Under the pieces are notes generated by a model. It saw only the letters and a list, made by a program, of their open reading frames with translations. It ran no database searches and was not told where the DNA came from. A stretch of 64,000 bases of DNA from the NCBI GenBank assembly GCA_051746405.1, contig JBNJFB010000005.1, forward strand, positions 1,993 to 65,992, written 5' to 3'. Shown in pieces: positions 50,159-63,219 of this stretch. The position numbers and the translations under genes were made by a program. Each line of letters opens with the position of its first letter. Within the stretch, counting starts at the first letter, position 1. The DNA is from Campylobacterota bacterium. GTDB lineage: Bacteria > Campylobacterota > Campylobacteria > Campylobacterales > Arcobacteraceae.

Positions 50159-51001
50159 TTAATTTAAAAAGCTATCTTCTACTGCTTGTATCTCTTTTTT
50201 AGAACCAAAATAAAAAGGTGTTTTTTGCTGTATTGATACATTTGTCATATCAAGGATTCGTCCCTTATGACTTATAGCTCGTCCCCCTGCTTCTTCAATA
50301 ATATATGAAATTGGAAAAGCTTCAAATATAATATCATGAACTCCATCAGGAAAAGATTTTGTAGCTGGACTTGAATATACTCCCCCTTTTTTAAACAAAA
50401 TTTGGTGCGTATCCAAAGCCAAAGAGTCAGAAAACCTAAGCCTATAACCCTCATTAAAAAATGAATCTATAAGCTCTTTATGCTCACTTGTCCACTCATT
50501 TGGTAATCCACCAGTTGAGTTTATTTTTCCAGAATTTTCTAGTTTTAGAGGGTCTTGTTCTATAAACTCTCCATTTTCATAGGAAAAGTAAATCACCCCT
50601 TCTTGCTTTGAAGCAAATACTAGTTGGAAAGTTGGACCATAGGTTATATACATTGCAGCTTTTAAGTGAAAAGCATCCATATGATTTTCATAAATTCCAA
50701 AAATAGTACCTAAAGAGAAATCAACATCTATTAAATCTAGATTATCAATTGCAACATAACTAATCTTATACTTGCCATTTTCATTTATTGTTGTATATTT
50801 TTTAGAATATTTACCAATAAAACCATGCACTGATTTAACTTTTTTGAACTCTGTTCTTATTACCTTTGAACAATACTCATTTACTCTATCATGCATCTGC
50901 TCATCGCTTAATCCACTTGAGATAAATTTATCACAATCTGTAAAGACATTTTTTTCAATATCTTCTGCAATATTTGTTATGGCGTTGAAAACTGCTATCA
51001 T
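50159..51001 (-). CDS. Class I FBPase homologue with degenerate active site
   Basis: Overall FBPase_1 layout (GTIFGIY, YGP, GYRLR, GGVYSSP, FEAFP...EEAGG) but VAIDNLD in place of DPLDGSS and GKY in place of SEE. Confidence 0.8.
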   Translation of the reverse strand: MIAVFNAITNIAEDIEKNVFTDCDKFISSGLSDEQMHDRVNEYCSKVIRTEFKKVKSVHGFIGKYSKKYTTINENGKYKISYVAIDNLDLIDVDFSLGTIFGIYENHMDAFHLKAAMYITYGPTFQLVFASKQEGVIYFSYENGEFIEQDPLKLENSGKINSTGGLPNEWTSEHKELIDSFFNEGYRLRFSDSLALDTHQILFKKGGVYSSPATKSFPDGVHDIIFEAFPISYIIEEAGGRAISHKGRILDMTNVSIQQKTPFYFGSKKEIQAVEDSFLN

Positions 51002-51081
51002 TTATATAAACCCTAACTTATTATAATTTGTCAATTGACATTGTTTCTTACAATAATACCAAGTAATTCATTAAAGATTGA

Positions 51082-51897
51082 TTACTTAGCTTCTTTTTTT
51101 GTTCCCTCTAAACTCCCATTTTCCAACTTTGAGAGTTTTATTTTAATACTGTTTTTACAAAAAGCACTTTTAATAATTTCTTGTTCCAAAAACATCTTCA
51201 ACTGTTTGTTTTTACCAACACTTCCACCTAAAACTAAATCAGAAAAATCAAATAAACTTATGGCAGTATGAAAGGCATGTGCCAAACCATCATAAAAATT
51301 ATCTATAATTATTTTACTTTCAGGTGTATTTAGTTTATGCAATTTATCAAGCCTATGATAGTATGAAGTTATTTTATAATACTCACACCATCTTTTTATA
51401 GCACTACCACTTACACTTAGTTCAATACAATCATCTCTACCACATCCACATACAAATGGTGTTTTTTTAAAAGGGATATGTCCTATCTCCCCACTTTGAT
51501 TATTTACCCCTCGTACAAGTTTCCCATCGTCAAGAAAAGCACCTCCAAAGCCTGTTCCAATATAAAAAAGTGCCATTGATTTTGAGCCAGTACTTTTATG
51601 TTCTGCTATTGCTGCACAGTTTAAATCATTATCTATTTTTAGTGCAATTTTGTAAGTATCATTTATATATTTTTTAATATTAAAATTTTCTATAGCTATA
51701 CTTGGAGATTTAACTATAACCCCATCTTTTACTTGACCCGCGAAGCTTATAGATATAAACTCTATTTGTTTATTTTTATTTATAATATCATCTAAAAAAG
51801 TTTTTAAGTCAACTGTTTTACTTCCAAGTGATATAATTTGACCATTATCAAACTGATATCTAAAATTTGTACCACCAAAATCTATATAAAGATTCAT
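51082..51897 (-). CDS. ROK-family sugar kinase (putative glucokinase)
   Basis: IDFGGTN, NDLNCAAIAE, GTGFGG, GEIGH, CGCGRDDCIE. Confidence 0.88.
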   Translation of the reverse strand: MNLYIDFGGTNFRYQFDNGQIISLGSKTVDLKTFLDDIINKNKQIEFISISFAGQVKDGVIVKSPSIAIENFNIKKYINDTYKIALKIDNDLNCAAIAEHKSTGSKSMALFYIGTGFGGAFLDDGKLVRGVNNQSGEIGHIPFKKTPFVCGCGRDDCIELSVSGSAIKRWCEYYKITSYYHRLDKLHKLNTPESKIIIDNFYDGLAHAFHTAISLFDFSDLVLGGSVGKNKQLKMFLEQEIIKSAFCKNSIKIKLSKLENGSLEGTKKEAK

Positions 51898-51904
51898 ACT
51901 AAAC

Positions 51905-52885
51905 TTAACTCTCTTTTAATATTTTTGCAGCAGTTTCAGGCAAAAAAGTATTTATCATAATATCACTATCAAGCTCAAATCCAGCAGTTTTGTACAATCT
52001 TGGTATAATTTGAATATGAAATCTATTAGAGTTATGAGTATCTTGTATAGCTCCATTTTTTATAAGCATATTAAAATCACACTCACCCAAAGCTTTTTTG
52101 AGCTTTATAAAACAGTATTGTATAATTTCACTTAAGGAGTAAATCCCTATATCATCTAAATCTAAAATAGAAGATATTTCACCAGTTGCAACTATATTTA
52201 TCTCAAATGAATAACTTGAAGCATAAGGACAAAATGCTATAAAGTAGTTATTCTCAAAAAGTAACCCTTTCATAAAGGTTTTCTCTTCATAAATTAAATC
52301 ATCAAAAAAACATCTATTTGTTTCTTGCTTATATTTACTATACTCTTCAAGGTCAGATGCAATCGTTTTAGGAATAAATGGCGTTGCTATAAGTTGTGAA
52401 TGGGAATGCAAGATAGATGCCCCACCATCTTGTCCATAATTTTTAAATATTGAAAAATAATTCAATCTTATATCTTTTTTAAGGTCATTAATACGAAGTT
52501 TTATGATACTAAAATAATCAAAAAACTCATCAATTGAAAAATCAAACATTTGATGACTATGGACAGGAGTTTCTATGATAACTTCATGTGCTCCAAAAGC
52601 ACTCATATTTTCAAAACATCCTGTTCTATATGATTTTACCTCTTTATCAATACTTAATGCATGATATAAATTTGGAACCACTCTGCATTTCCAGTTTTGC
52701 AAAGTACCAATTCTAGCTAGCTCATTAGGTGTTTGCTCTTCATTTCCTTTCTCAAAAGGACAACTTTCTATATCTTTTTTTGTATGATTATCATCATTTC
52801 TATTAAAACTAAAAGGTCTTCTTGCTCTATTTGGAGCAAATAAAACCCAATTTTTTGTTAGCTTATTATATCTAAATTCTGACAT
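51905..52885 (-). CDS. GalT-like hexose-1-phosphate nucleotidyltransferase
   Basis: RARRP, CPF, VVPNLY, GAHEVIIETP, KNYG..GGASILHSHSQ (HxHxQ). Confidence 0.85.
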   Translation of the reverse strand: MSEFRYNKLTKNWVLFAPNRARRPFSFNRNDDNHTKKDIESCPFEKGNEEQTPNELARIGTLQNWKCRVVPNLYHALSIDKEVKSYRTGCFENMSAFGAHEVIIETPVHSHQMFDFSIDEFFDYFSIIKLRINDLKKDIRLNYFSIFKNYGQDGGASILHSHSQLIATPFIPKTIASDLEEYSKYKQETNRCFFDDLIYEEKTFMKGLLFENNYFIAFCPYASSYSFEINIVATGEISSILDLDDIGIYSLSEIIQYCFIKLKKALGECDFNMLIKNGAIQDTHNSNRFHIQIIPRLYKTAGFELDSDIMINTFLPETAAKILKES

Positions 52886-54972
52886 TATATGTACCAATTC
52901 TTTAAATCTAAATTTTCTATATCTATTATAAAACTATTATATAATGGGAAAGATTGAACTTTATTCGCCCCTTCAAATATAGAAAACTTAAAATCTATTT
53001 TTTTTCCTACTGTTAACTGTTTTGATGAAAACTCTATTTGTATACTATTTTCCAATGAAAAAACATTACAAGAGATATCTTCTTGAATAATATTTTGCTT
53101 ACCTTTTGTAACAAATATTTCAAACTCCTTATCATTTAAAGTAACTATTAATGATATTTTTTTAAAAAGCTTTGCAAAATTTCCATCAAAAAAGAGATAA
53201 AATTTCCCTACATTATAACCATATTTAATATTTTTTACTATATTTTTAGAGCTATCCATAACTGAAAACTCTTTTTTTATATCAATAAAACCACTATTTA
53301 TCCACTCAAAATAATTACTTTTATCACAAGCTAGGTTTTGATAAATAAAACTTAAAGGTTTTGTATGAAAACCATTATTTGAAGTGTCATCAACAATTGG
53401 TCTTAATATTTCTAAAGGTGTTGGAAGCTTTAGATACTCATAAATATTTATAAGGTGCGTTCTAAAAAATGTATCAAACTCTTTGGACTGAACAGTAAAA
53501 TGGTCATCTCCATACCACCAAAACCAATCACTTGCCAATGCCACCATAAATTCATTTTCAATAAGCTGTAGAGTTTTTTTATCTAAAGAGTTTTTATATT
53601 TATCAAAATCCCTTTTTGTAATACTTAAAAGCTCCCAAGCTCTATTTTTTTGTTTACTTCCTATCCAAATATCAAAGTTTCCATTTATCCAACTTCCACT
53701 ATGTATATGTGATAATGTTTCGCATACTATTTGTTTATCATGAGTTACTTCATCCATTGTTACTGTTTCTATCCAAGAAGTACTTTCAAATAAGCTATAT
53801 AGTTCATTAAAAAACTCAAATGCATTATTTGGAAAAAACTCCCAAGCATTTTCTCCATCAAGTATAACATTAACTAATGGCATAAAATCACATGAGTTAT
53901 ATATCTCTTGCAAATGCTCTACAAATCTTTTTGCAGCTACTTTTGGTTCTATATTACTATACTCAAAACCTATTAAGTCACTTAAGTAATGGTCTCTAAA
54001 TCTCACATCAATAACACCATTTTGTGTTTGTAACTGATAATTTTTATAGATATCTTTTTTCTCTCTTTTGTTAGGTGATTTAAAAAGAGTCTCTTCATCA
54101 CTACAAAACCATTGCAAACCATTTTTTGTAAATAATTCAGCAGTATCCTGACTTACACTACCCTCTGCAGGCCAAAAACCCTTTGTTTTCTTTCCAAATC
54201 TATTTTCAAAAAATTGTATTGCATCTTCTGTATTTTTTATACCAAACTCCTTAAAAGAAGCTAACTTTTCTGGCATAACCACATCATGTTTTGCTTTTTT
54301 TGCATTTGAAAAGTCAAGTAATAATGGTGTGATTGGATGAAAATAAGGAGTGGTACAAACTGTTATTTTATTCTCACTATCTAACTTTTTATACAACTGT
54401 ATTATAGATGGTAAAAATGCAACTAGTTCATTTATAAGTTTTATTTTCTCTTCTTGTGAAAAATTATCTCCTTTTGCTAAAAGGAACTTAACCTCTTCAT
54501 TGGAAGTTCTTAAATATACACCACACCATGATAAAAGAAATAATACCTGTGTATCTAAAAGCTCACTAGAACTAAAATCTTGTATAGTTTTATGTGTATT
54601 GTATTTTAAATAAAGCTCATAATATCTTTTAAGAGGTTTTATCATATTTTTTTCATTTGATAAAAAAAGATAACTTTGAAGATACTCTTTATCATGAGTA
54701 GTAAGGTTTACTATATCTTTTTTTAAAGTCTCAAGTAGTTTATCATTTGCACTATTATCTATATATGACTCTATTTGACGCACTAATGAGGGAACTAGGT
54801 TAAAAGTAGTTTTAAGATTAGGAAATAAACTACCATACCAAGGTATATCATAATAGTCTTTTATTGAGTGTAAAAATACCCAAGGAAACAGTGTTTTATC
54901 TGACTTATCATCTTTATAATATGGCTGATGCATATGCCATAAAAATGCTAGTTTTAATTTTTTTTCACTCAT
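52885..54972 (-). CDS. GH57 amylopullulanase-like glycoside hydrolase
   Basis: WHMHQP, GFWPAEG nucleophile, ILDGENAWE acid/base, ASDWFWW. Confidence 0.88.
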   Translation of the reverse strand: MSEKKLKLAFLWHMHQPYYKDDKSDKTLFPWVFLHSIKDYYDIPWYGSLFPNLKTTFNLVPSLVRQIESYIDNSANDKLLETLKKDIVNLTTHDKEYLQSYLFLSNEKNMIKPLKRYYELYLKYNTHKTIQDFSSSELLDTQVLFLLSWCGVYLRTSNEEVKFLLAKGDNFSQEEKIKLINELVAFLPSIIQLYKKLDSENKITVCTTPYFHPITPLLLDFSNAKKAKHDVVMPEKLASFKEFGIKNTEDAIQFFENRFGKKTKGFWPAEGSVSQDTAELFTKNGLQWFCSDEETLFKSPNKREKKDIYKNYQLQTQNGVIDVRFRDHYLSDLIGFEYSNIEPKVAAKRFVEHLQEIYNSCDFMPLVNVILDGENAWEFFPNNAFEFFNELYSLFESTSWIETVTMDEVTHDKQIVCETLSHIHSGSWINGNFDIWIGSKQKNRAWELLSITKRDFDKYKNSLDKKTLQLIENEFMVALASDWFWWYGDDHFTVQSKEFDTFFRTHLINIYEYLKLPTPLEILRPIVDDTSNNGFHTKPLSFIYQNLACDKSNYFEWINSGFIDIKKEFSVMDSSKNIVKNIKYGYNVGKFYLFFDGNFAKLFKKISLIVTLNDKEFEIFVTKGKQNIIQEDISCNVFSLENSIQIEFSSKQLTVGKKIDFKFSIFEGANKVQSFPLYNSFIIDIENLDLKNWYI

Positions 54973-54978
54973 GATTTA

Positions 54979-56970
54979 TTATATATCTTTTATTGTAAAT
55001 TGCATTATTGTATTGAAACTTTTAACAAAATCAAATACAAAACCAAAACTTATCCCTTGATTTGTAATATCAAGCCCTTTTTCACTTTGACTAATAGTGT
55101 TTAGTGGTACTATTAATATATCAATATCTTTTTGAAAACTAAAACTTATTATCTTTTTTGTATATCTATCTTTAATTATAAGTTCACTTGTATGTAGCTT
55201 TAAAGTTGATTGATTATCTTCTAAGATAAGATTATTAAAACTCACTTCTTGTATATTAGCAAAATGTAGATTCCACTCATGAAAATAGTAAAGTTTTTTA
55301 GTAAAACTACTCTTTAAGCCTATGTCTATTTCTATACTATTTTTTAAAAATTTATAAGATTTTTCAATCTTTGTATCAAACTTCTTATCTAAATAGATAC
55401 CACCATCTCTTTTTAAAGAGATTTTTTTTGATCTATTTTTACTCTCTTCATAAGGCTGATTTGCAAAATCTCCTAACTCATGAAAACTATTATTAAAAAA
55501 GCTTTCACAGGATATTGCATTTACAATATGATCAATAGCTGATTTTTTTAAATACCAATCTATAATAATCTTCATATCTTCTTTTAGTAGAAGTTTATTA
55601 TCGTGAATAGTTATTAACTCTTCTTTTTCTTCTAAACTACTATCACCTATTACTATTTCCTTATGATAGGCTTCTTCATGTCTTGTGAGTGTATTTTGTA
55701 GATTATATTTTTCATCTAATAAATCAAGTTCAACTATTTGTCCTCCATGTTTAGATGATATAATAGTAAGAAGGTTTTCACTTTTAAATTTATATTCATC
55801 ATACCCATCCATATCAATATCAATAGTCTCTTTTGATGTTTTAAGCATGGTTTCACAATCTATTATATACTTATATGTATTATCTCTTAAATTTGGAAGA
55901 TATATACCTCCAAATACACCATGCCATAATACATCATTACATTGTGATTTATAAAGTGCTTCTTTATATTTTGTACTTGTACCTTGTTTGTTAGAAAGTT
56001 CTAAAAATCTTTTTTGAATCCAGTTACTCTCTTGATATTTATTAAAAAAATTCTTCCATGTGCCCCCATTAATAAAATGAGATAGCTCTCTTTGAGAATT
56101 CATTAATGAGTCAACTTTAATTGCTTCAGCACACTTTAATGACCACTTCCCCATTTCTGAATATGATACTGTTGGTAAATATACCAAACCTAAAGGTTTA
56201 TTTTCCATATAGTAGTCTTTAAACGTTTTACACTCTATTTTCTCATCTGCTAAAGTTTGAGTAATAAAATCTTCTAACCATTTTTTTTCATATACTGTCT
56301 CATATGTTTTTGGCCATATTCCAAACTTTTCCCCATCATCAAAAAGAATAGCTGCATTTTTTCCTTGTGTATTCTCAAAACTATGAAGAAGATTATTTGT
56401 AGTTTCTAAATCATAAAAAGGAATAGCATATCGTAACTCTTGATTTATAGGAAATATCCCTATAGAGTCACCGCCCTCTTCTGTAATGAAATATCCTGTT
56501 GTATCTTTAACATCAACTCCTGTAGAAATAAGATGATAATCATCTACTATTACATACTCAACGTTACACTGCTTTATATCTCTTATAATACTATTGTCCC
56601 AAACCCTTTCAGTAAGCCATAGACCTTTTGGAGTTTGGTTAAAGTGTTTTTTTATATAGTTTGATAGCTTTTTTATTTGAGCTATTCTATCTACAGCTGG
56701 AATAGAGGCTAAAATTGGCTCATAAAACCCTCCTGTAAAAAACTCTATTTGTTTTGATAGTGATTTTATAAGTGAAAAAAGCTCCTTATCATTTTTTTGT
56801 ATAAACTCTAAAAGCCATCCACTAAAATGAACAGAAAATTTAAAATCAGGAAACTTTTGAACTGTTTGAAAAAAAGGCTTATAAGATTTCTCAATCGCAT
56901 CATATATTACATAATCAAAATTATCAATTGGTTGATGAGAGTGAACCCCTAAAAGAAATGTTGTTTTCAT
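54979..56970 (-). CDS. GH57 4-alpha-glucanotransferase / alpha-amylase
   Basis: HSHQP, GLWLTERVW, FDDGEKFG, SQCNDVLWHG. Confidence 0.88.
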   Translation of the reverse strand: MKTTFLLGVHSHQPIDNFDYVIYDAIEKSYKPFFQTVQKFPDFKFSVHFSGWLLEFIQKNDKELFSLIKSLSKQIEFFTGGFYEPILASIPAVDRIAQIKKLSNYIKKHFNQTPKGLWLTERVWDNSIIRDIKQCNVEYVIVDDYHLISTGVDVKDTTGYFITEEGGDSIGIFPINQELRYAIPFYDLETTNNLLHSFENTQGKNAAILFDDGEKFGIWPKTYETVYEKKWLEDFITQTLADEKIECKTFKDYYMENKPLGLVYLPTVSYSEMGKWSLKCAEAIKVDSLMNSQRELSHFINGGTWKNFFNKYQESNWIQKRFLELSNKQGTSTKYKEALYKSQCNDVLWHGVFGGIYLPNLRDNTYKYIIDCETMLKTSKETIDIDMDGYDEYKFKSENLLTIISSKHGGQIVELDLLDEKYNLQNTLTRHEEAYHKEIVIGDSSLEEKEELITIHDNKLLLKEDMKIIIDWYLKKSAIDHIVNAISCESFFNNSFHELGDFANQPYEESKNRSKKISLKRDGGIYLDKKFDTKIEKSYKFLKNSIEIDIGLKSSFTKKLYYFHEWNLHFANIQEVSFNNLILEDNQSTLKLHTSELIIKDRYTKKIISFSFQKDIDILIVPLNTISQSEKGLDITNQGISFGFVFDFVKSFNTIMQFTIKDI

Positions 56971-57031
56971 ATTTTAACCCCTTATTTGGTTGTACTAATG
57001 TTATTCTTATTTAATCACAGTTTAATTACAA

Positions 57032-58456
57032 TTACTGATATAGCTCTATATATCTTAAAGCAGAGTGTTCCCAGGAGTTATCAACTGCCATATTATGCTT
57101 TGAAATAGTTTCAAACTTTTGATGATTTGCATAGAGACTTAAAGCTTTTGCAATAGCATGCATAAACCAAAAGATATTTTGCTCTTCATATGTGATACCT
57201 ATACCTATATACTCATTAAGACTTGAATAATCCACATCTGTAAAATCAACCACACTATCTTTAAGTCCTCCAGTTTTTGCAACTATTGGTAAAACACCAT
57301 ATTTCATACCTATCATTTGATTCAATCCACAAGGTTCAAAAATAGATGGCATAAGTAAAAAATCCGCAGCTGCATATAGTTTTCTTGAAAAACTCTCTTC
57401 ATATCCAACTTTTATATAAACATTAGGATAACTAACGGAAATATTATTGAAAATTGTTTCGTAATGCTTTTCTCCACTTCCAAGTATGATAAAGTTTGCT
57501 TCAAAATCTTTTAAAAGATTTAAACTCTCTATAAGTAAATCAATACCTTTTTGATTTGTAAACCTACCTATAAAAATAAAAAGTGGCTTTTGACTGCGTT
57601 TAAAACCTATATCTGCTAAAAGTTGTTGTTTATTTTCATTTTTATTTTTATAGTTTTTTAGTGTAAACTTTTTATATATATTTAAATCAATTTTAGGATT
57701 AAACACCTCATAGCTTATTCCATTTAAGATTCCAGAAAGTTTATAATTGTTTGCAATAAGTGTGTGCTCTAAGTCATTACCAAAAAGCTTTGTTTGAATC
57801 TCATTTGCATATGTGGGACTAACAGTTGTGATTTTATCACTATAAAAAATACCAGCTTTAAGAAAATTTACTTCATCGTGATACTCTAAAGCTTCTTTCT
57901 TAAAACACTTATCCCAAGAAAGTTCAAGTAAATCAACACTATTTTTTGGATAAATTCCTTGATAAGCAAGATTATGAATAGTAAGAATTATCTTTTGTGA
58001 TAACTTATATTTTGTTTTTGCCAATAGTGCAATCAGTGCTGTTTGCCAATCGTTTATATGAATAGCAGATATTTCTAAATTCATATGAAAAATTACTTCT
58101 ATACATGCATAAGAAAAGAGTCCAAACCTTAAAGCATTGTCACCAAAATCACCATATCCATCATAATACAGCCCTTCTCTATCACATAAAATTGGATTAT
58201 ATATAAAAAGTTCATATCTATTATTTTTATTATGAAATATATCAAACTGATGGGATACACCATTTAAAGTATAATAAAATGTACAATGAGCGTACTGTAA
58301 ATTAAACTTATTTCTATCTATTGTTTGATAAAGTGGCAACACAGTATAAACATCTATGGTATTTCTTAATGCTTCAGGTAAACTTTGTGAAACATCACCA
58401 AGCCCACCACTTTTAGCATAAGGATACATCTCGCTTGTACAAAATAGTAGTGCCAT
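57032..58456 (-). CDS. glgA: Glycogen synthase (GT5)
   Basis: PYAKSGGLGDV, HINDWQT, TIHNLAYQG, RFTNQKG, PSIFEPCGL, TGGLKD; start trimmed to MALLF. Confidence 0.93.
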   Translation of the reverse strand: MALLFCTSEMYPYAKSGGLGDVSQSLPEALRNTIDVYTVLPLYQTIDRNKFNLQYAHCTFYYTLNGVSHQFDIFHNKNNRYELFIYNPILCDREGLYYDGYGDFGDNALRFGLFSYACIEVIFHMNLEISAIHINDWQTALIALLAKTKYKLSQKIILTIHNLAYQGIYPKNSVDLLELSWDKCFKKEALEYHDEVNFLKAGIFYSDKITTVSPTYANEIQTKLFGNDLEHTLIANNYKLSGILNGISYEVFNPKIDLNIYKKFTLKNYKNKNENKQQLLADIGFKRSQKPLFIFIGRFTNQKGIDLLIESLNLLKDFEANFIILGSGEKHYETIFNNISVSYPNVYIKVGYEESFSRKLYAAADFLLMPSIFEPCGLNQMIGMKYGVLPIVAKTGGLKDSVVDFTDVDYSSLNEYIGIGITYEEQNIFWFMHAIAKALSLYANHQKFETISKHNMAVDNSWEHSALRYIELYQ

Positions 58457-58457
58457 T

Positions 58458-60050
58458 TTATCTCTCCTTTTTTGTGCAGTATATTCTATAATCACAAAAA
58501 CTAAATAGGGAGTTTTTAGACTCAATCTCTTCTAAAAACTCATAATCTATATCTTCATTAATCATTTCTAATAACATTTGAAAATTACTTATATGCTCTT
58601 TTGTTCTTTTAATACTATATTCAGTAGCTGTTTGAGTTGTCATCAAAAATGCCCAATCACTACTTTGTGCTAGCAATAACTCTCTGTGCATTTGATTTAA
58701 TAACCTTGTATTATTAGAACTTGTACCATCTTTATATCTATTTGCTAACTCTTCCATAGTATCAGCCATGTTATGCAAATGTCTATATATCCAAGAGTTT
58801 CCTTCATTTAACCATACATCATAGTACCCCTTATCTCCCCATGATGAAGCAGATGGACTTATTACTTGATTTTGTGAATACATAGAGAGATACTCAAGAG
58901 GTGTTACAGCTTTAAAAACTTTATGCTTATCAATCTCTTTAAAAATATTGTAGATAAACTCAGGACCCTCAAACCACCAATGACCAAAAAGTTCAGCATC
59001 ATATGGAGACACAACCATAGGAGTTCTGTTCATATTTGATTTTAAAAACTCAAATTGCTTATCTCTTTTAAAGTGAAAATCTTTTGCATGTTCCACTGTT
59101 TTTTGTGAAGCAATTAATGGATTATATACCTCTTTATAATCAGTTTCCCCTGTTACTTTATGATATTTAAATCCAGTAAACTCTCTATTTCCACTAGGGT
59201 CAATATGCTCTTTTATATAATCAAACTCTAAGTCATACCCAATATCTCTATAAAAATCTCTATAGTTGAGATCTCCTGGATAGCCCTCTTTTGAACTCCA
59301 TACTTGCTTTGCAGAGTGAGGGTCTCTAGCAAAAGCTGCAACTTCATTTGTGGTATATACAGGTGCATAAACACCATTTGTAGATGTGGGATTGCCATAT
59401 ACTAAGCCATGTGAATCCATAAAGAAAAATTCAATTTCATTATCTTTTAAAATCTCATCAAGCCCTTCATAATATGCACACTCAGGGAGCCATATTCCTT
59501 TTGGAGCTTTTTTAAAATGCCTTTTATGAGACTCTACAGCTACTTCAATTTGAACTTCAACTGCTCTTTTATTTGGCTTTAAAAGAGGAAGAAAGCCATG
59601 GGTTGCAGCACAAGTTATAACCTCTATTTTTCTAAGGTCATTAAAATATCTATATCCATTTAAAATATTCCTATCTAAAACATTTATAAAAAAATCTTTA
59701 GTTTTTGTATATAAGTCTTGATAAAATAGAGCTAAATCCTTATAGTTTATATCATTTGCCGTTCTTTTAACCTCTTTTTTTGCTAAAAGAAGCTGATTTT
59801 TAAGATGATTTTCATATTTTTTCATAAGATGTTCATCATCTAACATCTGAGCTAGGGGAGGAGTTATAGAAATAGTAAGCCTAAAATCTATATTTTCAGA
59901 CTCAAGTTGTTTAAGTCTGCTTAAAAGTGGTATATAACATTCAGTAATAGCCTCAAATAGCCAATGCTCTTCTAGAAAATAGTCATATTTTGGATGTTTT
60001 ACAAACGGTAAATGTGAATGAAGTACTGGTACCCAATATCCTTTTATCAT
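58458..60050 (-). CDS. GH57 1,4-alpha-glucan branching enzyme (DUF1957)
   Basis: HSHLP, EEHWLFEA, GIWLPEC, PYDAELFGHWWFEG, AQSSDWAF. Confidence 0.92.
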   Translation of the reverse strand: MIKGYWVPVLHSHLPFVKHPKYDYFLEEHWLFEAITECYIPLLSRLKQLESENIDFRLTISITPPLAQMLDDEHLMKKYENHLKNQLLLAKKEVKRTANDINYKDLALFYQDLYTKTKDFFINVLDRNILNGYRYFNDLRKIEVITCAATHGFLPLLKPNKRAVEVQIEVAVESHKRHFKKAPKGIWLPECAYYEGLDEILKDNEIEFFFMDSHGLVYGNPTSTNGVYAPVYTTNEVAAFARDPHSAKQVWSSKEGYPGDLNYRDFYRDIGYDLEFDYIKEHIDPSGNREFTGFKYHKVTGETDYKEVYNPLIASQKTVEHAKDFHFKRDKQFEFLKSNMNRTPMVVSPYDAELFGHWWFEGPEFIYNIFKEIDKHKVFKAVTPLEYLSMYSQNQVISPSASSWGDKGYYDVWLNEGNSWIYRHLHNMADTMEELANRYKDGTSSNNTRLLNQMHRELLLAQSSDWAFLMTTQTATEYSIKRTKEHISNFQMLLEMINEDIDYEFLEEIESKNSLFSFCDYRIYCTKKER

Positions 60051-60577
60051 AGTTTTTCTCCTAAATCTTTAGAGCTTAAATACTCACAAGATATATTACT
60101 ATACTCTTGTATTCTTTTAGTTTTTTTTAGATAAGTTGCATAAATAATATCTTTATTAATAATTTTTATATTATCTGATTCCATAAGATTTTTAATTATC
60201 ATACCGTCTTTATAAACAGCTATAACTTTTATCTCTTTTAAAGATGAATTTGTAGTATCTATATTATAAAAATACTCACCATATAAATATTCACACTTTA
60301 TATTAGCAAGTAAATTCTGTTTTTGATCAACTATATGAAAAAAAATATCATCTAAACTTATACTATTTTTATCTAAAAACTCCTCTGTAAACTCCCAATA
60401 AAAATATGATCTACTTTTATTTACAGGTAGCATTACCAATTTATTTTTATAATATCTTGTTGGAATAATATAATCTTTTTCTTCAACTACATTATCTGCT
60501 ACAATCGTATCAATAGAGTGTATACTACTAGTAAAGTTTCCTGTAGTTAAACTTTCATTTATTAAATTCTCTTTCAT
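60047..60577 (-). CDS. DUF4912-like protein
   Basis: LVMLPV...YFYWE motif; directly upstream of the GH57 branching enzyme; start at ATG 60577 for RBS spacing. Confidence 0.65.
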   Translation of the reverse strand: MKENLINESLTTGNFTSSIHSIDTIVADNVVEEKDYIIPTRYYKNKLVMLPVNKSRSYFYWEFTEEFLDKNSISLDDIFFHIVDQKQNLLANIKCEYLYGEYFYNIDTTNSSLKEIKVIAVYKDGMIIKNLMESDNIKIINKDIIYATYLKKTKRIQEYSNISCEYLSSKDLGEKL

Positions 60578-60723
60578 ATTTAGCAATCTCCTTATATCAT
60601 AAATTATATCGCTAAATAGTTACAAATCAGTTATATAGAAAAAAATTTAAGGTTAAGGCTAATATGTAACTAAAATGTATCTAAAGGTAAGTAAAATAGA
60701 GTAACTTTTAATTAGGATAGATA

Positions 60724-63219
60724 ATGAAAGCAATAATTCTAGCAGGTGGTTTTGGAACAAGAATCCAACCACTTACAAACTCACTTCCAAAACCAATGTT
60801 ACCAATACTCAATCGTCCAATGATGGAACATATTATTTTAAAACTACGTGATGAGTTAGATATAAAAGAGATGGCAATTTTACTTTACTTTAAACCTGAA
60901 ATTATTAGAGAATATTTCGGTGATGGCAGTAGATTTGGTGTAAAATTAACTTATATAGAACCCGATGATGACTATGGAACAGCAGGTGCTGTTTCATTTG
61001 CAAGGGATTTTTTAGATGATACGTTTATCATAGTAAGTGGTGATTTAGTAACAAATTTCAATTTTAAAGCCATAGAGAAATTTCACAAAAAGAAAAAATC
61101 ACAATTTACAATTACGCTAACTAGTGTTGAAGACCCTCTACAGTTTGGTGTAGTTATTGCAGATGAAAATAATAGAATAGATAAGTTTTTAGAAAAACCA
61201 AGCTGGGGAGAAGTATTTAGTGATACTATAAATACCGGCATTTATATAATAGAACCTGAAATATTAAACTTTATACCACATGGAGAAGATTTTGATTTTG
61301 CAAAAGACCTTTTTCCTACCCTTATGCAAAATAATATCCCATTATGGGGCTATAGTGAAAAAGGATACTGGAGAGATGTGGGAAATCCTCAAAGTTATAG
61401 AGAAGTATATGAAGATATTTTTAAAGGAGATATAACTCTACCTATAAAAGGTGAAGCAAAAAAGATTGATAATGGACTAGTTTACATATCAAAAGGAGTT
61501 GAGTTACCTGAAAAGTTAAGAGTAAAAGGTGTAGTTGTTTTAGATGAAAATGTTAAAATAAGTGAAGGCGTTACATTAGAAAATGCTTCTATTGGCAAAA
61601 ACTGTAAAATAAAAAAACATTCTGAAGTAACAAACACTATTTTATGGAATGATGTAACAATAGGCTCAAAATCTAAAATCAATAACTCTGTTATATGTAA
61701 CAACTCTCAAATAAAAGATGAAGTAAAAGCATCCTTAGGTGTAATAATAGCTGAAGGTTGTATAATATTTAAAAAAGTAAGTTTTGTAAAAGATATTATT
61801 ATATGGCCTAATAAAGTTATAGATGCTTCCTCAATAGTAAGTAATAATGTAATATGGGGTACAAAATATAAGTCTACTATTTTTGAAGAGGGAAAAGTAA
61901 CAGGAAGAACAAATATAGAACTTTCTGTACAAATGAGTACTAAACTTGCTGAATCTTTTGGTTCTATACTCCCTGTTGGTAGTAAAGTTTATATGTCAAG
62001 GGATTATCATAAAAGTTCAAGAATGATTAAGCGTGCTTTTCTTTCTGGACTTTTAGCAACTGGAATAAATGTTGATGACCTTTTTGATGTTCCCTCTAAT
62101 GTAATGAGACACTGTTTGTCTAATAATGATAATGTTATTGCAGGAGTTCATTTTAGACAATCAGTTGTTGATCCTTCAAATACTGAGATTATTCTTTATA
62201 CAAACGAAGGATTATCTATTGATACAAAACTATCAAAATCCATTGAGAGAATATTTTTTAGAGAGAATTTTAGAAGAGTTAACTATACTCAAATTGGTGA
62301 AATCACTGAAGAAATAGGAACAAAAAACAGATATGTAGATGCAGTTTTAGAAAAATTAAATCTTAATAGTTTTAAAAACAATGAGCTAAAAGTAGCTACA
62401 GATATTATGTTTGGTTCCACATCTGATATATATCCTAAACTTATGAATGAGTTAGCTATTGAAAATGTTGTATTAAATGCCTACAAAGATGATAAAAATC
62501 TATCAGGTGTAGCAAATATGATAGTAAAATCTCAAAAATATATGGAAAATATTGTAAAAGCAATGCAGCTAGACTGTGGTTTCTTAATCTATCCAAATGG
62601 TCAAAAACTTCAACTAATTGATGATAAAGGTGAACTTGTATATGACTATAAAACACTTCTTGTAATACTAACAATGTTAAATGAACAAACAAATAAAAAG
62701 CTAAAAGTTTTACTACCTGCTTGGGGTCCTGATTTTATAGAGTTCAAAAATCTACAAATAACTTATGAAAATTTATCTAAACTCAAAGCAAGTGAACTAA
62801 TGGAGTTTGATCTTATTGCTACAACTGATGGGCACTATTCATTTTGTGATTTTGGTCTAAATCGTGATGCCATTTTTTCAAGTTTTAAAATTCTTGAACT
62901 CATGCAAAAATCAGATATTAAAATATCAAAAATTGTAAAACAACTTCCAGAGTTTGTATTTAGAGGCGAAAATGTAGCTTGTCCTAGTGAATTTAAAGGA
63001 AAAATGATGAGAAAATTCCTTGAAGATGGAAAAGATAAAGAGACTAGTTCTATAGATGGTGTTAAAACTTGGATAAGTGAAGATGAATGGCTACTTATGG
63101 TTCCAGATGAACATGCAGACTATTTAAACATATATATTCAAGCACAAGATGACAAAAGTGCAAGTAAAATATTTTGGAGCTATCAAGATAAAATAGAAAA
63201 ATGGATTAGTGAAAAATAA
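60724..63219 (+). CDS. Sugar-phosphate nucleotidyltransferase + hexapeptide (LbH) + degenerate PGM/PMM fusion
   Basis: ILAGGFGTRIQPLT..PKP, VSGD, FLEKP, YWRDVG; LbH repeats; PGM fold with YPNGQ in place of DxDxD. Confidence 0.85.
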   Translation: MKAIILAGGFGTRIQPLTNSLPKPMLPILNRPMMEHIILKLRDELDIKEMAILLYFKPEIIREYFGDGSRFGVKLTYIEPDDDYGTAGAVSFARDFLDDTFIIVSGDLVTNFNFKAIEKFHKKKKSQFTITLTSVEDPLQFGVVIADENNRIDKFLEKPSWGEVFSDTINTGIYIIEPEILNFIPHGEDFDFAKDLFPTLMQNNIPLWGYSEKGYWRDVGNPQSYREVYEDIFKGDITLPIKGEAKKIDNGLVYISKGVELPEKLRVKGVVVLDENVKISEGVTLENASIGKNCKIKKHSEVTNTILWNDVTIGSKSKINNSVICNNSQIKDEVKASLGVIIAEGCIIFKKVSFVKDIIIWPNKVIDASSIVSNNVIWGTKYKSTIFEEGKVTGRTNIELSVQMSTKLAESFGSILPVGSKVYMSRDYHKSSRMIKRAFLSGLLATGINVDDLFDVPSNVMRHCLSNNDNVIAGVHFRQSVVDPSNTEIILYTNEGLSIDTKLSKSIERIFFRENFRRVNYTQIGEITEEIGTKNRYVDAVLEKLNLNSFKNNELKVATDIMFGSTSDIYPKLMNELAIENVVLNAYKDDKNLSGVANMIVKSQKYMENIVKAMQLDCGFLIYPNGQKLQLIDDKGELVYDYKTLLVILTMLNEQTNKKLKVLLPAWGPDFIEFKNLQITYENLSKLKASELMEFDLIATTDGHYSFCDFGLNRDAIFSSFKILELMQKSDIKISKIVKQLPEFVFRGENVACPSEFKGKMMRKFLEDGKDKETSSIDGVKTWISEDEWLLMVPDEHADYLNIYIQAQDDKSASKIFWSYQDKIEKWISEK

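Follow-up and report, generated by a model that had tools for sequence, protein, structure and literature searches.

Introduction

In bacterial glycogen synthesis, the step catalysed by GlgC is regarded as the committed one and as the point of allosteric control. Here we describe a gene that may stand in for glgC in Campylobacterota, found in a 64,000-nucleotide window of contig JBNJFB010000005.1 (positions 1,993 to 65,992) from an Arcobacteraceae genome assembly (GCA_051746405.1; 2.44 Mb, 103 contigs, 95.8% complete). The encoded protein, hereafter the fusion, joins a nucleotidyltransferase (NTase), a left-handed beta-helix (LbH) and a phosphohexomutase fold in a single chain, and its gene lies next to an operon containing glgA. 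We consider the fusion to be, with a probability of roughly 0.6, a dedicated nucleoside diphosphate glucose (NDP-glucose) pyrophosphorylase supplying GlgA in place of GlgC.

Several described systems resemble parts of this protein. GlgC itself (TIGR02091; E. coli structure 5l6s) belongs to the same superfamily and likewise places an NTase before a left-handed beta-helix, and the position of the fusion gene beside glgA together with the absence of glgC points to the same genomic role. In contrast to GlgC, the fusion has a helix of the eIF2B/GMPP type (GMPP, GDP-mannose pyrophosphorylase) and an additional, apparently dead mutase domain of 450 residues. UDP-glucose pyrophosphorylases of the CugP type, once annotated as ManC themselves, share the ManC-like annotation of the fusion. 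The structure 8x7s (tlr0611 of Thermosynechococcus), which we take to be of the CugP type, was deposited as a glucose enzyme, UTP-glucose-1-phosphate uridylyltransferase. However, the base-reading loop of 8x7s contains an insertion that the fusion lacks, and CugP has neither a mutase domain nor a glycogen context. The GMPPB/VTC1/Rv3264c type (7d72, 7x8k, NF052502) has the NTase and LbH_EIF2B domains, the GGxGTR and F(V/L)EKP motifs and the Asn at N170 in common with the fusion, which differs from it in scoring below the NF052502 cut-off, in having Pro80 in place of the acidic residue for guanine N1, and in its glycogen context.

The C-terminal half finds its closest described counterparts in archaeal-type phosphoglucomutase/phosphomannomutase (PGM/PMM) enzymes (9du5, 1wqa), with which it shares the full four-domain fold at 22-23% identity; unlike these enzymes, the fusion has degenerate versions of all four catalytic loops, new invariant residues and a 7-residue insertion. 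GMPPA is a catalytically inactive regulatory paralogue that senses product. In the human GMPPA-GMPPB complex (7d72) it offers a likeness by analogy only, in that a GMPP-type transferase is joined by a pseudoenzyme module, but there the dead module is a transferase copy in a separate subunit, whereas that of the fusion is a mutase fold fused in cis. Finally, the window protein is a member of a family of ~830-residue fusions (KEGG K16881), including Streptomyces SCO1388, that share its architecture and its dead loops. The clade of the window protein differs from its distant members in having Pro80 and the motif GGFGTRIQPLT, where the distant members keep a GMPP-like Glu at the Pro80 position, and the distant members mostly lie beside genes for CDP-alcohol phosphatidyltransferase or PTS EIIA.

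Co-occurrence with GlgA in genomes lacking glgC

The first-pass annotation of the window had proposed the gene as a substitute for GlgC, had expected it to co-occur with glgA in genomes without glgC, and had counted a canonical glgC elsewhere as evidence against this role. In the source genome no gene passed the TIGR02091 cut-off for glgC, the best match being the fusion gene itself (120 versus 424.9 bits), and none passed it in any of 251 Campylobacterota genomes, each at least 90% complete. Within these 251 genomes the fusion was detected in 27, and GlgA exceeded its curated cut-off in the identical 27, so that the expected co-occurrence is one-to-one. The genome scan, performed with a single fusion protein, returned Campylobacterota and one unrelated match in Spirochaetia. 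The 27 genomes are scattered over 15 of 49 genera with a patchy distribution inside families; they make up 7 of 16 in a single family and 4 of 10 in a single genus.

The coupling extends to gene order. The fusion gene and glgA lie on one contig within ~12 kb in 19 of the 26 other genomes, and the remaining seven have them on different contigs of fragmented assemblies. Among the 27 loci, 21 display a co-directional series of the fusion, a GH57 gene (~690 residues), a GalT-like gene and GlgA, and the GH57 gene directly follows the fusion in 25, with gaps of a few to ~25 bases. About half of the 27 GlgA-positive genomes carry two tandem GlgA paralogues (~545 and ~500 bits) downstream of the fusion, whereas that of the window has one. 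Two genomes have peculiarities of their own: one has, in addition to the fusion, a stand-alone 390-residue NTase-LbH frame (G232:C19:8647-9675) that scores 138.7 bits with the glgC model, compared with 123.9 for its fusion, and in a complete genome the fusion gene contains one in-frame TAA inside the match (G040:C1:957797-960310), which could mark a pseudogene or a sequencing error.

The source genome also carries a true ManC (GMP_PMI, 524 bits against a cut-off of 373), a PgmG-type PGM/PMM, GlmM, a pgmG-galU-pgi operon and an additional NTase that is extended at its N terminus. Given the separate ManC, PGM/PMM and GlmM, mannose activation and real mutase activity are covered by other genes.

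A glycogen-linked clade within a wider family

A metagenome scan with the family alignment yielded 80 full-length fusions, and a maximum-likelihood tree was built from 103 sequences. In this tree 41 sequences form a clade with a support of 1.0, made up of 32 low-GC sequences of Campylobacterota type and a sister group of nine from contigs with a GC fraction of 0.49-0.64; bins of Dadabacteria, Ignavibacteriales and Thermosulfidibacteraceae are the source of named cluster members close to it. Genes for GH57, GalT-like or GlgA proteins occur in the available flank of 38 of the 41 clade members, and only three loci with glycogen genes fall beyond the clade.

Neighbours of the other fusions were counted over 90 open reading frames (ORFs), taken from 61 metagenome loci without a detected glycogen gene; two of these loci, L043 and L046, are members of the 41-sequence clade. 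Next to the distant fusions (loci L061-L118), a CDP-alcohol phosphatidyltransferase is the most frequent immediate neighbour (11 ORFs), ahead of PTS EIIA (5 ORFs), with rhomboid and DUF881 genes also present. The CDP-alcohol phosphatidyltransferase neighbourhood is also the context of Streptomyces SCO1388, and it hints that the distant fusions serve another purpose, possibly one involving lipids or polar head groups. Overall, the tree and gene neighbourhoods place the window protein in a branch dedicated to glycogen, within a larger family of heterogeneous function.

The transferase half

The N-terminal motifs comprise GGFGTRIQPLTNSLPKP (residues 8-24), SGD107, FLEKPS (residues 155-160), INTGIY and YWRDVG. 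Over 80 relatives, down to ~28% identity, no variation is seen at G9, R13, K23, D107, E157-K158-P159, N170, G172, Y174, W216 and D218. Such conservation speaks for a working enzyme, and the transferase half is apparently functional. Together with the Pfam domains, these residues agree with the earlier description of an intact nucleoside triphosphate (NTP) transferase followed by a left-handed beta-helix in the domain order of GlgC.

The N-domain nonetheless groups with GMPP and CugP enzymes and not with GlgC. The best solved relative of the N-terminal 359 residues is 8x7s (182 bits, ~32% identity), ahead of VTC1 (159 bits), 7whr (155 bits) and GMPPB (140 bits), a lead of 20-40 bits over the GMPPs, and Foldseek matched the N-terminal half of the model to VTC1, GMPPB and 8x7s. 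The best NCBIfam match was man1P_GTase_Rv (NF052502) with 229.5 bits against a cut-off of 440. GlgC models also stayed below their cut-offs (TIGR02091, 123.2 versus 424.9 bits; PRK05293, 126.6 versus 470), as did the model for the GlgC-type helix (PF25247, 18.2 versus 27 bits).

Which nucleotide and which sugar the enzyme would use is only partly reflected in its motifs. The GxGxR...K signature (here GGFGTR...PKP) and the F(V)EKP motif (here FLEKPS) are both present but do not discriminate, because glucose enzymes such as 8x7s carry them too; the sugar-contacting Asn (N170) is equally uninformative, being invariant in mannose and glucose enzymes alike. More telling is the base-reading loop. 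In VTC1, the acidic residue that reads guanine N1 occupies position 80, with Gly85 of LGTAG five residues further on (PMC9168903). Pro takes this place in the window protein and in 41 of 41 glycogen-clade members, which have the signature Y-x-x-P-[DL]-[DE]-D-x-G-T-A-G, whereas the distant fusions retain Glu (Y-S-x-E-E-x-P-L-G-T-A-G-S). The presence of Pro at the guanine-reading position weakens the guanylyltransferase label and says nothing on ADP versus UDP. Judged from this alignment, the GDP-mannose label is doubtful for the fusion. ADP or UDP is the most plausible nucleotide.

The mutase-like half

Pfam recognizes PGM_PMM_I (residues 386-517), PGM_PMM_II (residues 536-636) and, weakly, PGM_PMM_III in the C-terminal half. 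The archaeal GlmM model TIGR03990 aligns residues 392-821 to its positions 9-441 of 444, which shows a mutase fold of full length. An AlphaFold2 model of the fusion, computed with 80 relatives as input, reached a mean predicted local distance difference test (pLDDT) value of 93.5 and a predicted template modelling (pTM) score of 0.65. Foldseek related its C-terminal half to PGM from T. kodakarensis (9du5) and to P. horikoshii 1wqa, each with a TM score of 0.82 on the target; TM scores on the target for the four-domain fold were 0.82-0.86, and no solved structure among the Foldseek matches spanned both halves of the fusion.

The four catalytic loops were judged by alignment with the genome's own PgmG-like and GlmM paralogues. 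The first-pass annotation had described degenerate serine and metal loops; the alignment confirms both and adds the sugar- and phosphate-binding loops, so that four of four are degenerate. Beyond the loops listed in the table, the Arg of GxRG is replaced by Thr, the Lys after the Ser loop by Ile, and all three metal-binding Asp residues are replaced. The idea that this half acts as a phosphomannomutase is largely refuted by the four dead loops. Among 138 full-length family representatives (30-52% identity), SHNP is kept in none and DGDADR in one, and the P-D motif replaces RxSxTEP throughout; the dead mutase is thus a trait of the whole ~830-residue fusion family and not peculiar to the glycogen cluster.

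Loss of the catalytic loops has not been accompanied by general decay. Domain I of the dead mutase ranks second in conservation among the parts of the protein, and R433, R437, R462, E508, R518, Y537, D715, K758, R763 and P794, a set that takes in the FRENFRR insertion, are invariant in near and far relatives. This pattern indicates that the dead domain is under selective constraint. Its most likely function is that of a module for regulation or assembly. The more specific proposal of the first-pass annotation, an allosteric sensor of sugar phosphates, is possible but unsupported. With the phosphosugar-binding residues exchanged (Thr for the GxRG Arg, Ile for the loop Lys, VPDEH for RxSxT), any ligand of the domain would bind differently, and the acidic Asp now found in the former phosphate loop weighs against sugar-phosphate sensing.

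Organization of the locus

Table. Features of the fusion gene and the adjoining glycogen locus (positions in the window; aa, residues of the fusion; E, expectation value).
Feature	Position	Strand	Basis or remark
Whole ORF, NTase-LbH-pseudoPGM fusion	60724..63219	+	ATG start, 831 aa plus stop
NTP_transferase domain (aa 2-232), catalytic residues intact	60727..61419	+	PF00483, E 6e-52
Base-reading loop YIEPDDDYGTAG (aa 77-88), with Pro80 at the guanine-binding acidic position of GMPP enzymes	60952..60987	+	Alignment with solved relatives
Left-handed beta-helix (aa 252-375)	61477..61848	+	PF25084 (LbH_EIF2B), E 6e-20 for aa 252-352; short beta strands to ~aa 375 in the model
Flexible linker (aa 376-385)	61849..61878	+	pLDDT <50 at aa 380-382; sole weak internal segment of the AlphaFold2 model
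Four-domain alpha-D-phosphohexomutase fold (aa 386-831), predicted to be catalytically dead	61879..63216	+	Pfam, TIGR03990, Foldseek, loop alignment
Former phosphoserine loop RQSVVDP (aa 478-484)	62155..62175	+	I[TS][GA]SHNP in mutases, FRQSVVDP here; Ser480 retained, His-Asn gone
Fusion-specific 7-aa insertion FRENFRR (aa 512-518)	62257..62277	+	E514, R517 and R518 conserved
Former metal loop YPNGQK (aa 623-628)	62590..62607	+	DGDADR in mutases
Former sugar-binding loop TTDGH (aa 700-704)	62821..62835	+	E.SGH (G-E-x-S-G-H) in mutases
Former phosphate-binding loop VPDEHAD (aa 793-799)	63100..63120	+	Family-wide P-D motif where mutases have RxSxTEP
Divergent intergenic region, 137 bp	60587..60723	.	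Between the DUF4912-GH57-glgA operon (-) and the fusion gene (+)
Linked operon: DUF4912, GH57 branching enzyme, GlgA, GH57 of 4-alpha-glucanotransferase type, GH57 (695 aa), GalT-like	51905..60586	-	Family models; conserved neighbours of the fusion in relatives

The locus of the window (50159-63219) is rearranged relative to the common arrangement. In relatives, DUF4912 and the GH57 branching enzyme form a separate unit; here they head a minus-strand series that continues with GlgA, 4-alpha-glucanotransferase, GH57, the GalT-like gene, ROK and fructose-bisphosphatase, and the fusion gene is divergent from it (60047..60586, minus strand), as first described. The window protein departs from its clade in gene order alone, being encoded by a divergent gene and not by the head of the operon. 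An AGGA ribosome-binding site lies 8 nt before the ATG of the fusion gene, the promoter scan of the gene gave promoter-like matches no higher than the shuffle background, and the terminator scan found no terminator-like site after it. In the minus-strand operon, glgA (57032-58525) with its listed TTG start shares 68 nt (58458-58525) with the end of the branching-enzyme gene. GlgA models match from residue 23-26 onward, so translation probably begins ~20 codons further downstream.

Discussion

Taken together, the lack of glgC, the 27/27 coupling to GlgA, the shared operon, the separate ManC and the lost guanine reader make a dedicated NDP-glucose supplier the best reading of the fusion. A GMPP/CugP-type N-terminal transferase would join an NTP to glucose-1-phosphate and fill the GlgC role, the genome's separate PgmG-type mutase would supply the glucose-1-phosphate, and the NDP-glucose product would serve as donor for GlgA. 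The C-terminal PGM fold, having presumably lost catalysis and been kept by selection, would be a regulatory or assembly module. The first-pass annotation had made the same donor assignment. Its genomic side stands, through the co-occurrence, the operon and Pro80; that the donor is supplied by the fusion rather than by GalU or the GalT-like enzyme is what we infer.

Several observations weigh against a dedicated role in donor supply. The 27/27 counts are drawn from related genomes and are not independent events, and the bulk of the wider fusion family is not glycogen-linked. The N-domain falls under every curated family cut-off, so its substrate is not readable from homology, and literature searches found no published characterization of the fusion and no biochemical data for any member of the family. 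Finally, two other enzymes could provide the donor. UDP-glucose made by GalU is on hand in all these genomes and could feed GlgA, and a GalT-like nucleotide-sugar enzyme of the HIT type, equally conserved in the operon, could make or interconvert the donor.

The last point leads to the strongest alternative, in which the GlgA donor comes from GalU as UDP-glucose, or from the GalT-like enzyme working as a reverse NDP-glucose phosphorylase, and the fusion has another glycogen role, for instance in the synthesis of some other NDP-sugar, in priming, or mainly as a regulator or scaffold. GalU occurs in 249 of the 251 genomes, including all 27 with glycogen genes, and shows no coupling to the fusion. 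A gene found this widely is not glycogen-specific, and its near-universal presence neither supports nor excludes GalU as the source of the donor. The GalT-like HIT-family gene (51905-52897, minus strand) scores below the galT cut-offs with a weak match to DUF4921, and it is conserved between GH57 and glgA in most clade loci. Its product may produce NDP-glucose, drain the pool or interconvert it with other nucleotide sugars; the gene is the principal confounder when donor synthesis is attributed to the fusion. A non-catalytic role would also suit a protein of which the conserved pseudo-PGM part makes up over half. However, the invariant transferase residues argue for a working enzyme, and if GalU sufficed, both the strict coupling of the fusion to GlgA and its place in the operon would go unexplained. 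We therefore regard this alternative as unlikely.

A second alternative concerns the C-terminal half, which might keep a non-canonical activity or handle substrate, for example by passing glucose-1-phosphate or glucose-1,6-bisphosphate to the transferase site. Ser480 is retained here and frequently among relatives, the former cleft still has conserved R426-D427 and G474, and the invariant, fusion-specific basic residues R433, R437, R462, R518, K758 and R763 could form an anion site. Yet Ser480 is not invariant, and the three metal Asp residues, the loop Lys, the GxRG Arg and the RxSxT loop are all lost, with an Asp now in the phosphate loop, which makes substrate handling of this kind quite improbable.

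Least credible is the database reading as a bifunctional mannose-1-phosphate guanylyltransferase/phosphomannomutase (KEGG K16881) making GDP-mannose, which has in its favour the database name, the top NCBIfam match to man1P_GTase_Rv and the F(L)EKP motif and LbH_EIF2B domain common to GMPPB and VTC1, but which we consider highly improbable given a score far under the cut-off, four dead mutase loops, Pro in place of the guanine-reading acid, a genome with true ManC and true PMM/PGM, a context of glycogen and not mannose, and the lack of a GMP-type phenotype upon SCO1388 disruption (PMC5982138). In that study, SCO1388 was disrupted alone or with other manC candidates without a GDP-mannose phenotype, and its authors concluded that the gene contributes little to GDP-mannose pyrophosphorylase (GMP) activity (PMC5982138). 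As the first-pass annotation had anticipated, automatic naming points the other way: relatives appear in their source records as 'mannose-1-phosphate guanylyltransferase/phosphomannomutase' or 'sugar phosphate nucleotidyltransferase'.

Returning to the fusion as NDP-glucose supplier, a more far-reaching version is that a whole clade from Campylobacterota and several other phyla makes its glycogen donor by a non-GlgC pyrophosphorylase whose dead PGM domain is a new allosteric sensor that binds a metabolite via the fusion-specific basic site, giving GlgC-like control and possibly a donor other than ADP-glucose; we put this forward tentatively, as a proposal more likely to fail than to hold.

What is new here is the exact 27/27 co-occurrence with GlgA in a set with glgC in 0 of 251 genomes, against a near-universal and hence uninformative GalU, together with a monophyletic glycogen clade that reaches beyond Campylobacterota and has lost the guanine-reading residue. 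The fusion also provides a clean case of a conserved pseudoenzyme domain. If our reading is true, thousands of database entries for a 'bifunctional mannose-1-phosphate guanylyltransferase/phosphomannomutase' would be misnamed. If the fusion makes the donor, the control point of carbon storage in Campylobacterota of vents, sediments and sulfidic waters, and in their relatives from other phyla, would be an unstudied protein.

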